Of a stretch of 64,000 nucleotides of DNA, positions 7,065 to 11,093 are shown one piece after another. A program made the translations under genes and the position numbers. This DNA comes from Escherichia coli O157:H7 (lineage in GTDB: Bacteria > Pseudomonadota > Gammaproteobacteria > Enterobacterales > Enterobacteriaceae), in the NCBI RefSeq assembly GCF_013167455.1, contig NZ_CP038328.1; one strand, given 5' to 3'. Under the pieces are notes generated by a model. The model was not told the origin of the DNA. It was given only the letters and a program-made list of their open reading frames with translations, and did no database searches. Position 1 is the stretch's first letter, and every line of letters begins with the position of its first letter.

Positions 7065-10000
7065 TTAGTCAAACGGCGGTGGGGACAGCACTTCACGATT
7101 ACCGTTGTGCCCCTGTTCGCTGACAATCCCCTGCGCTTCCATCTGTTCGATAATACGCGCTGCACGGTTATAACCAATGCGGAACTGACGTTGTACGCCA
7201 GAAATTGACGCTTTGCGTTTTTCAGTGACAAACTGCACCGCCTGATCGAACAACGGATCCAGTTCTTCAGCGCCATCGAAACCACCCGCACCACCTTCGC
7301 TTTCGCTGTCGGAGGTGATGCCATCAACATACTGTGGGCGACCACGCGCTTTCCAGTCCTGCACCACGGCATGAACTTCCTGATCGCGAACAAAAGCACC
7401 ATGGACACGTACCGGCAACGTGGAGTTCGGCCCAGAGTAGAGCATATCCCCCATACCCAGCAGTGATTCCGCGCCAGCCTGATCAAGAATGGTACGTGAG
7501 TCAATCTTACTGGATACGGTAAAGGCGATACGGGTCGGAATATTCGCTTTAATCAGACCAGTAATAACATCAACCGATGGACGCTGAGTTGCCAGTACGA
7601 GGTGGATACCCGCGGCACGGGCTTTTTGCGCCAGACGTGCTATCAGCTCTTCCACTTTTTTACCTACTGTCATCATCAGGTCGGCAAATTCGTCCACCAA
7701 CACCACAATGTATGGTTCTTTTTTCAGCACCGGATGCTGGGCATCCATACTGTCACCCGGCTTCCAGTACGGGTCTGGAATCGGACGCATCATGCGATCG
7801 GCTTCAGCAATTTTTTCGTTATAACCCGCCAGATTACGCACACCCAGCGCAGACATCAGTTTATAACGACGCTCCATCTCGTTAACACACCAGCGCAGCG
7901 CGTTGGCGGCATCTTTCATATCAGTAACGACTTCCGTTAACAGGTGCGGAATGCCTTCATACACCGAAAGCTCCAGCATTTTCGGGTCGATCATGATGAA
8001 ACGCACATCTTCTGGCTGTGCTTTATAAAGCATGCTCAGGATCATCGCGTTCACACCGACAGATTTACCGGAACCGGTAGTCCCCGCAACTAACAAGTGC
8101 GGCATTTTCGCCAGATCGGCAACCACCGGCTCACCGGCGATATCTTTACCCAGCACCACGGTTAATGGCGATGGATTATCGCGGAATTTGGCGTTATCCA
8201 ATACTTCGCGCAGATAAACGGTTTGTCGTTTTTTATTCGGTAACTCCAGACCTACATAGGGTTTGCCAGGAATAACTTCAACGACACGCACCGCCACCGT
8301 CGAAAGTGAACGGGCAAGGTCCCGTGACAAGTTAGAAATGCGCGCCGCTTTTACGCCCGGTGCCAGGTTAAGTTCAAAGCGAGTGATAACCGGCCCCGGA
8401 GAGTAATTGACGACATCGGCTTTAATACGGAAATCAGCCAGACGCGCTTCCACCAGGCGAGCCATTTGTTCAAGCGCAAAGGTATCTACCGGCTCCACTT
8501 CGCTCGGCGGCGGTGTCAGCAAATCCAGAGAAGGCAGCGGCGTCGTCGGTTTATGCAACGGACGGCTGTCGCCATTACGCATCAACAGCGGATGAAGCAG
8601 AGTATCCTGCGGCTGTGGCGCAACTGGCTGTTGTGGCTGCTGATACTGCGGCTGCGGTGCAACCGGTTGTTGCGGCTGTTGATACTGCGGCTGCGGCGCA
8701 ACTGGTTGTTGCGGCTGCTGATATTGCTGCTGTGGCGCAACCGGTTGTTGCGGCTGCTGATATTGTGGCTGCGGCGCAACCTGCTGTTGTGGCTGCTGAT
8801 ACTGCGGCTGTGGCGCAACCGGCTGTTGTGGCTGCTGATACTGCTGCTGCGGTGCAACCGGTTGTTGCGGCTGCTGTACAGGTTCAACAATTGGCGTAAA
8901 CAGCGGTTCGTGTGGACCATCATCCAGCAACGCTTTCATTGGCGAAAATTCAAAATCATCCAGCGAGAACGGATTCGCCCCAGCCGGTTGTTCGCCGGAA
9001 TAACGTTGTTGTTGAGTTTGCGCAAACTGACGAGCCAGTTCAGCCTCTGCCGCAGCATCTGCATCTTCTGCATTTACGGGCACATCATGTTGATACTGTT
9101 CGCCATAGCGTTGCTGCTGTGTCTGGGCGAACTGACGTGCCAGTTCATCCTGCTGCATCGCATCGATTTCATCATCGTTGTACTGATCGCCAGAATCGTA
9201 CTGATTGCGCTGGGCTTCACGGGCTTTTTCTTCCGCCGCACGCTGTGAGGGCAGCTTAATACCGTAAGACGCCAATTCACGACGAGTTGGCACGCGGATA
9301 CGTTTCGGTCGTGGCAACTGCGGGCCAATCCCCTCTTTGACCTGCGGACGCGGTCCACCGCTATTTGCCAGACTGAAGACTGGCGCGGCAACGGTTGCGG
9401 CAGCCCCCGTCGCCAGTGTCGCTTTTTTCACGCCAGATGCCAGCGGAGAAACAGCGGCAGCGGCTTCTACTGGAGGTACTGCTGCAACAGAAGGTGCTTT
9501 CAGCGAAGATTTGATCGGTTCTGGTTCTTTAACCGGTTCTGGAATCGGTTGATACCAGGCCGCAAGTTGTTCACGTTCACGGGCTCGCTTCTCTTCAACT
9601 TCTTCAAAGTAGTAAAGCGGCGGACGCGCGGGTTTTGTCTCTTCTACAACGGGTTCAGGCTCCACAACAGGCTGCTGTTCAACGGGTTGCGGCTGTTGGT
9701 ACAACGGCTCCTGAGCGGCTGGCTGCTGATAAGTTTGCTCAGTCTGGTATGTAGACTGTGGAGCAAAAGTGGATTGCTGCTCTTCGGCTTGCCAGGCGTT
9801 ACCTGCCACCGGTTGTTCTGGCGCAGGGGCATAATACGGCTGTTGCGCAGGTTGTTCAGCTGCAGGTGCATAATACGGCTGCTGCGGCTGTACTGGTTGT
9901 TGCAGCGGCTCATTATATTGCACTGCAGGCTGCGCATATTGTGACTGCTGTGGGTAACCTTCCGGTGCAGGAGCAATAACCGGCTCTCCCGTTTGTGGAC

Positions 10001-11093
10001 CCGGTACAGGCTGCCAGGCTACTGTAGGTTGCGAAGGTGGAACATCAACAGAGGCAACAGGCGGCGTCTGAGTCACAGGTTCAACCGGCGCAGCCCAGCT
10101 TTGTGTCGCCGTGGTAGCAGCAGCTGCTACAGCGACAGGTTCGGTAATTGGCGCACCGTTTAATAATGGATCGTATTCGTCATATTCTGGCTGCGTTGCA
10201 CGATTGCCCGAAAATAGGACGTCGTCCGGGTCGGCAGCCACACCGCGTGCAGTGTAGGTAATCTCTTCGTCATCATCCATCCGCTTACCGGAGAACAACG
10301 CAGCGTCTGTTTGCCGCCCCATCGGATTAATGAATTTTTCCGCCAACCGTTTACGACGCGCTAGCGCGCCGCGAAGAATACGGGCACGGCGTGATTCATG
10401 CTGTTTGCCGTGGTTTTCATCTTCATACTCTTCGTCGTCTTCATACTCATCTTCATCGACCCAGGTATCATCGCGACGGGTACGATTACTGGCGAAGGTG
10501 AGAATGTTTAAAATCCAGCCGCCGAGTTTTTCAGCAATGGTCACCCATGACCAACCGGTGAACAACGTCAGGCCCGCTGCCCAAACGCAGAGCAGCGCAA
10601 TAGTTCCCCCGCTACTGTGTAGCAGTGGTTGTAGCGTAGTGCTTAGTAAGCTGCCAATGACGCCACCGGAGGCAAAATACCAGATATCGTCAGCGTTGAT
10701 TGCCGCCAGACCACAGGAGGTAAGGATGAGCGCCAAAACGCCAATGATGCGTAGCGAAACGGCAAAATAATCAATGTTTTCGTCGCTGGACTGATGACGC
10801 CAGGCAAACCAACAACCGCCGACAATAATGACGGGAATGGTGTAAGCCATCACGCCAAAAATAAAGAACAGCGTATCTGCCAACCACGCACCGGGCATCC
10901 CACCTAAATTATGGATAGGTTCATGCCAGGCCGTTTGCGACCAGCTGGGGTCCGAAGGGTTAAAGCTTAGTAAGGCAGCCATCAACCAGACGGCAAACAG
11001 GACAATAAGGATCAGCAACGCCTCCAGAAGGCGGCGGCCGCTACTTAACTTTGTCAATGTGACTTCTTTGTCTTCAGTGTATTCCTGGCTCAA
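7065..11093 (-). CDS. ftsK: DNA translocase FtsK
   Basis: 1342-aa ORF; N-terminal membrane domain, long Pro/Gln-rich linker, C-terminal motor with Walker A GTTGSGKS; the recalled K-12 protein is 1329 aa, a difference of exactly one 13-aa linker repeat. Confidence 0.95.
8607..8877. repeat. 39-bp tandem repeat (about 6.9 units) within ftsK encoding the PQQPVAPQ(P/Q)QYQQ linker repeats
   Basis: Unit boundaries read directly at 8607, 8646, 8685, 8724, 8763, 8802, 8841; units differ by a few substitutions. Confidence 0.9.

Follow-up and report, generated by a model that had tools for sequence, protein, structure and literature searches.

A 39-bp in-frame tandem repeat in the FtsK linker of Escherichia coli O157:H7 is the MLVA locus CVN001

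The window analyzed here, a stretch of 64,000 nucleotides from the genome of an E. coli O157:H7 strain, contains the ftsK gene on the minus strand (7065..11093). According to the ORF list, the Pfam search and the RefSeq annotation of the identical region, the gene starts with TTG and encodes a protein of 1342 aa. The neighboring ORFs in the window follow the K-12 order lrp-ftsK-lolA-rarA. PF13491, PF17854, PF01580 and PF09397 were all found above the gathering thresholds in this ORF, which thus shows the full FtsK/SpoIIIE translocase architecture: FtsK_4TM at aa 20-191, FtsK_alpha at aa 853-953, FtsK_SpoIIIE at aa 961-1174 and FtsK_gamma at aa 1277-1336. The linker carries a tandem repeat array (8607..8882, minus strand; FtsK aa 738-829), which is located outside every Pfam domain, 24 aa ahead of the alpha domain. 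Tandem Repeats Finder (TRF) reported a period of 39 bp with 6.9 copies, 87% matches, 0 indels and a score of 400 at 8607..8876 of the window. This agrees with a preliminary description of the locus, in which about seven 39-bp tandem repeats had been noticed at 8607..8877. Read in the ftsK frame, the array comprises 92 codons, namely seven units of 13 codons and one CAG codon. In gene order the units are located at 8882-8844 (unit 1), 8843-8805 (unit 2), 8804-8766 (unit 3), 8765-8727 (unit 4), 8726-8688 (unit 5), 8687-8649 (unit 6) and 8648-8610 (unit 7). They encode the peptide (P/Q)(V/Y)QQPQQ(P/Q)VAPQ(P/Q), with a first 13-aa unit followed by six units of the form QYQQPQQ(P/Q)VAPQ(P/Q). The unit PQQPVAPQ(P/Q)QYQQ, as it had been written before, is the same peptide in another register. 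TRF also flagged an 18-bp sub-period within the array. The slot which holds the repeats is bordered upstream by EPLFTPIVE (8883..8909, minus strand), whose EPLFTP anchor is kept across genera, and downstream by the conserved sequence (D/E)(T/S)L(L/I)HPLLMRNG (8571..8606, minus strand). On the plus strand, a 260-aa ORF antisense to ftsK (8466-9248) was rejected as a gene. Its repetitive translation, LLRLLILRL..., is the mirror reading of the CAG/CCG repeats.

The array is CVN001, an already known locus of the generic E. coli MLVA scheme. That the polymorphism is a published typing marker had not been recognized in the preliminary description. Two primer pairs are published for the locus, the original one (PMC8143711) and a second one (PMC11773471). 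Both match the window with 0 mismatches and are convergent on either side of the array. The forward primer site is located at 8971..8991 on the minus strand (ACAACCGGCTGGGGCGAATCC at 8971-8989 and AACCGGCTGGGGCGAATCC at 8971-8991), the reverse primer sites at 8506..8536 on the plus strand (GGCGGCGGTGTCAGCAAATC at 8506-8525 and GTCAGCAAATCCAGAGAAGGCA at 8515-8536), all of them as exact matches. The sizing rule of the locus is (PS-250)/39 with a unit of 39 bp (PMC8143711). The in-silico product of 484 bp in the window therefore converts to 6.0, i.e., MLVA allele 6, and the product of 445 bp in K-12 to 5.0, i.e., allele 5. The MLVA count is one unit below the count of TRF, because the fixed offset of 250 bp absorbs about one unit. 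Three papers count CVN001 among the seven loci with which the generic E. coli MLVA began, credited to Lindstedt et al. 2007, and the scheme is named GECM-7/GECM-10 (PMC5217547, PMC3877011, PMC8143711). It is also listed with primers as "CNV001 (ftsK)" among the MLVA loci in a paper on avian E. coli (PMC11773471). In a Swedish ESBL collection, alleles 4 (1%), 5 (40%), 6 (40%), 7 (13%) and 8 (5%) were found, and the O25b-ST131 isolates all carried allele 6, so that the locus was monomorphic within ST131 (PMC5217547). An O25b:H4-ST131 genome in our sample of 60 genomes (see below) has an array of 276 bp, which converts to allele 6 and agrees with the published ST131 allele. Primers, 39-bp unit, location in ftsK and polymorphism between strains all agree, and nothing was found that differs in kind. 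Alleles with partial units (222, 252 and 291 bp) are visible by sequence but are rounded away in MLVA sizing. Coding VNTRs also exist in other E. coli proteins of the envelope and of cell division, within Pro-rich disordered stretches. By description, one of them, CVN004 in tolA (PMC11773471), is similar to the ftsK array: its tandem repeats are in frame, the linker which holds them is of low complexity, the protein is conserved and the locus serves as a typing marker. It differs in the gene and in the unit length (15 bp instead of 39 bp).

In the preliminary description, the O157 protein had been compared with a K-12 length of 1329 aa, and the 13-aa surplus had been assigned to one repeat unit. 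The MG1655 ftsK gene (NC_000913 933224..937213) has 3990 bp and encodes 1329 aa, so this length was correct. The protein alignment shows one single gap, at O157 aa 790-802, within the array. A location of the 13-aa difference elsewhere in the low-complexity linker is therefore ruled out. Besides the gap, seven substitutions separate the two proteins, three of them in the array. The idea that the difference goes back to slippage or recombination in the array holds insofar as the gap corresponds to one unit of the array, but not as one clean and recent step between K-12 and O157. Whichever O157 unit is removed, 10 or more mismatches to K-12 remain in 234 bp (4.3%), and a single recent duplication or deletion was rejected as the whole difference. 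Over 600 bp, the flanks of the two strains are 99.2% identical (0.8% divergence). The O157 units 1, 3, 4 and 7 show 0-1 mismatches to the K-12 units 1, 3, 4 and 6, respectively. Unit 5 is nearest to K-12 unit 2, and unit 6 differs from every K-12 unit by at least four mismatches. Each pair of adjacent O157 units differs by at least three bases, so that nothing points to a fresh duplication. Both arrays are old, with internal reshuffling.

For a survey of copy number across E. coli, 5,426 complete genomes were searched with the two 300-bp flanks only, and the span of the hit was taken as the array length. The counts come from a systematic sample of 60 records down the ranking, 59 of which were scored. 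This query replaced a first megablast survey with array and flanks, in which 53 of 60 records gave usable spans and seven gave partial hits, because BLAST does not connect segments in which one repeat is used twice. The picture was similar there, with 7, 6 and 5 units in 24, 22 and 3 records. In the flank-only survey, seven units (276 bp) were found in 29 of the 60 genomes and six units (237 bp) in 21, which together account for 83% of the sample. Three genomes carry eight units (315 bp). Five units (198 bp), two units (81 bp, strain GF60) and one unit (42 bp) were found once each, and the same is true for the partial-unit forms of 222, 252 and 291 bp. The odd-length alleles contain either an extra QYQQP (15 bp) or a unit without QYQQP (24 bp). 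All 59 intact alleles are in frame, with lengths divisible by 3. The repeat number is thus variable between strains and in-frame, as had been proposed, and the copy-number check suggested along with this claim gave a range of 1 to 8 units among the 60 sampled complete genomes. The one-unit allele is annotated as an intact CDS of 1277 aa, and 21 contigs of independent runs code for exactly this protein. It is therefore a real allele.

A single array length was found in all sampled O157:H7 records, in the K-12 records of MG1655 and MC4100, and in the genomes with the ST131 flank haplotype, for each group respectively. CVN001 is a slow marker which follows lineages: clones are uniform in it whereas lineages differ, and for this reason it works as a typing marker. 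The one record which was not scored is frameshifted. In this strain, CRE10 (NZ_CP034404.1 223370-226994), the annotation gives ftsK as a pseudogene with a frameshift. The array region measures 458 bp, which is not a multiple of 3, and a segment of the flank is duplicated in it. As the gene is an essential one, this has the look of an error of assembly and not of a biological change. Eight matches of the ftsK flanks were located on records labelled as plasmids, and one of the 5,426 genomes gave no match. These records could be mislabelled replicons or incomplete assemblies.

The annotated FtsK lengths of the strains examined (1277-1381 aa) did not fit the CVN001 unit counts, and a whole-gene alignment revealed a second array with a 39-bp unit further upstream in the linker. 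In the window it is located at 9810..9884 on the minus strand (aa 404-428) and consists of two units (TRF: 9811..9886, 1.9 copies). In the flank-only survey of 60 genomes, two units were found in 19, three units in 17 and four units in 24 genomes. O157 and K-12 both carry two units, whereas other strains have three or four. The length arithmetic of the preliminary description worked because K-12 and O157 share this two-copy allele. K-12 and strain UID2309220026 both encode an FtsK of 1329 aa, yet they combine 6+2 and 5+3 units of CVN001 and the second VNTR, respectively. The two VNTRs vary independently, and the protein length alone therefore cannot identify the CVN001 allele. A paper naming the second array as a typing locus was not found in our literature search, which was not aimed at this array.

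The repeat slots were compared across Enterobacteriaceae by a degenerate-pattern scan with one genome per species, which yielded at least 120 loci. In the Enterobacteriaceae inspected, the CVN001 slot is fixed between DDGPxEPLFTP and (D/E)(T/S)L(L/I)HPLLMRNGD. The downstream boundary is kept in 19 of 20 species inspected, the exception being Enterobacteriaceae LSJC7 with HPFLMRNG. Arrays of 39 bp which belong to one unit family occupy the slot in Escherichia species, Salmonella enterica subsp. arizonae and Citrobacter species. In other genera it holds Pro/Gln/Tyr-rich units of 36, 42, 45 or 51 bp, and a clear array is missing from this slot in some of the species examined, e.g., Klebsiella pneumoniae and Enterobacter hormaechei. 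In E. albertii NBRC 107761 the slot is degenerate, with 11 consecutive alanines (PVQQQPAAAAAAAAAAAPQPQ) in place of most units and only about two recognizable units left; this array was missed by TRF and was read by eye from the in-frame translation. The upstream slot contains 39-bp arrays in Escherichia and Kluyvera (up to 13.6 copies) and 72-bp arrays in Klebsiella and Raoultella. The 13.6 copies belong to Kluyvera genomosp. 3, with the 39-bp unit QQPAYEQPQYAQP about 1200-1300 bp upstream of the NYSPGPV motif. In Klebsiella (three loci at a like distance from this motif: L132, L086 and L133) and Raoultella, 5.5-6.5 copies of the 72-bp unit were counted, so that the upstream array can far exceed its size in E. 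coli.

A 39-bp VNTR in ftsK is also known from Salmonella as STTR7/SENTR2, with 9.3 copies in S. Enteritidis (PMC2430564). Gene and period agree with CVN001. In the S. enterica subsp. arizonae genome examined, a 39-bp array is located 198 bp upstream of the NYSPGPV motif, and here the slot between EPLFTP and the downstream boundary as well as the peptide unit agree, too. Judged by gene, slot, period and homologous unit, CVN001 is most probably the ortholog of STTR7/SENTR2. The copy number differs, with 9.3 copies in S. Enteritidis and 4.5 in the arizonae genome, and the Salmonella units are far more homogeneous (0.7 differences per unit compared to 4.5 in E. coli). Between species the distances are larger. 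The S. arizonae units show 3.8-7.2 differences to all arrays except for the divergent one of C. werkmanii. In Escherichia sp. E1V33, 3.2 differences per unit were counted within the array and 6.8-7.8 to the E. coli arrays. That units are more alike within species than between them points to moderate concerted evolution.

Differences between the units are mostly silent. When the six full O157 units were compared in pairs after Nei-Gojobori, 58 of the differences were synonymous and 10 nonsynonymous, i.e., a pN/pS of 0.05, where only counts and ratio are used as the absolute pS is inflated by the twofold-degenerate Gln codons. Ten positions are variable, and eight of them fall on the third base of a codon. 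For the units of other E. coli alleles, pN/pS is 0.07-0.11. The peptide unit is probably kept by purifying selection while the DNA drifts. In E. coli the units are about 11% divergent from one another, and such drift lowers the identity between units and should slow down slippage.

Taken together, the array is very probably a slowly changing coding minisatellite (VNTR) whose changes in length are tolerated, in the Pro/Gln-rich linker of FtsK, a DNA translocase of cell division. From the repeat structure we infer that units are gained or lost by misaligned pairing between units, most likely through replication slippage or unequal homologous recombination. As a unit of 39 bp corresponds to 13 codons, gain or loss of whole units preserves the reading frame. 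Occasional out-of-register events at the internal QQP-QQP sub-repeat could produce the 15-bp and 24-bp variants. The odd allele lengths fit such a misalignment, and the 18-bp sub-period reported by TRF flags the same sub-repeat. The linker of E. coli FtsK is about 650 aa long, unstructured and rich in Pro and Gln, and its length varies between species; FtsK needs it in order to work normally, and contacts with FtsZ, FtsQ, FtsL and FtsI are described for parts of it (PMC5357621, PMC3870252, PMC3646729). A change in copy number would be tolerated because the segment lies between membrane anchor and motor domain, in a tether of roughly 650 aa whose length is presumably only loosely constrained. 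The natural alleles of 1 to 8 units show a wide tolerance. When an 84-bp in-frame indel in the ftsK linker repeat was exchanged between two S. Enteritidis strains, survival in egg white remained unchanged (PMC6137255). For E. coli, an experiment on array copy number was not found in the literature. The predominance of six or seven units could reflect stabilizing selection on length rather than near-neutrality, but common descent is just as good an explanation. The strong synonymous bias and the fact that Escherichia, Salmonella and Citrobacter have kept the 13-aa motif suggest that the array may be more than a passive spacer.

This raises the question whether the repeated peptide is a functional module, e.g., a semi-rigid polyproline-II ruler or a multivalent docking motif, whose sequence is selected and whose number sets reach or avidity. 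The low pN/pS among E. coli units (0.05-0.11) and the motif shared by the three genera would fit, as would the presence of some Pro/Gln/Tyr-rich repeat in the slot of most genera examined within Enterobacteriaceae. Contacts with FtsZ, FtsQ, FtsL and FtsI are reported for other parts of the linker (PMC5357621). However, an allele with one unit circulates in nature, unit length (36 to 51 bp) and sequence differ between genera, and K. pneumoniae and E. hormaechei lack a clear array in the slot. Moreover, the bias towards synonymous changes is in part to be expected, because a nonsynonymous change in a CAR codon often gives a stop codon or a charged residue. To our knowledge, no partner of the repeated peptide has been described. 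On this balance we consider a functional module unlikely. Still more doubtful is an extended version, according to which the FtsK linker of Enterobacteriaceae would possess a pair of conserved slots for repeats, the first shortly before the alpha domain and the second about 350 aa upstream. In these slots, lineage-specific tandem modules rich in Pro, Gln and Tyr would be renewed continually and yet be selected for their peptide, acting as a ruler or multivalent docking element. If this were true, the number of units (in E. coli 1 to 8 in the first slot and 2 to 4 in the second) would set the distance from the septum and the firmness with which the DNA motor is held, and would thereby adjust when chromosome dimers are resolved with respect to the closure of the septum.

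Since a tandem repeat lies inside an essential gene and several alleles circulate in E. coli, the array might also be taken for a contingency locus, i.e., a phase-variable or hypermutable site at which fast changes in copy number serve as an adaptive switch of FtsK activity. This is very improbable. With a unit of 13 codons no allele turns ftsK off, as seen in the 59 of 59 intact alleles in frame, and the divergence of about 11% between units suppresses slippage. Judged by the array lengths, the sampled genomes show neither a shift of the frame nor variation inside clones, the length being fixed within O157:H7, the sampled K-12 records and ST131. Finally, repeat arrays are prone to mis-assembly by collapse or expansion, and the frameshifted, garbled array of CRE10, annotated as part of a pseudogene, is an example. 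For the repeat count of the window, an artefact of this kind is very unlikely: several complete O157:H7 genomes which were assembled independently have a 901-bp region around the array with 100% identity, the identity is 99% or more in 310 records, the array has merely 276 bp, and the allele converts to an integer MLVA value. The slow in-frame minisatellite accounts best for the length difference between O157:H7 and K-12.

What had been noticed as a length difference is therefore a typing marker in routine use since 2007, and the allele of the window belongs to its two most frequent ones. Our analysis adds to the known CVN001 in a modest way, with the second VNTR, the conserved slots and the purifying selection on the unit. 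Given two 39-bp VNTRs in the gene, length differences of FtsK between strains are not assignable to one array. Short-read or early long-read assemblies can garble the array region, as in CRE10. From the natural alleles with one or two units it follows that almost the whole array is dispensable for viability, and the natural allelic series represents a cheap resource for studies on the function of the FtsK linker.

Another motif occurs twice, about 42 aa apart, in the part of the linker located directly upstream of the array (FtsK aa about 640-700; about 9000-9170 of the window). Both copies have the form ELARQFAxxQQQRY and can be seen in most of the genera inspected within Enterobacteriaceae, among them Salmonella, Klebsiella, Enterobacter and Kluyvera. 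This conservation suggests that the doubled motif may be a functional element within an otherwise variable linker.
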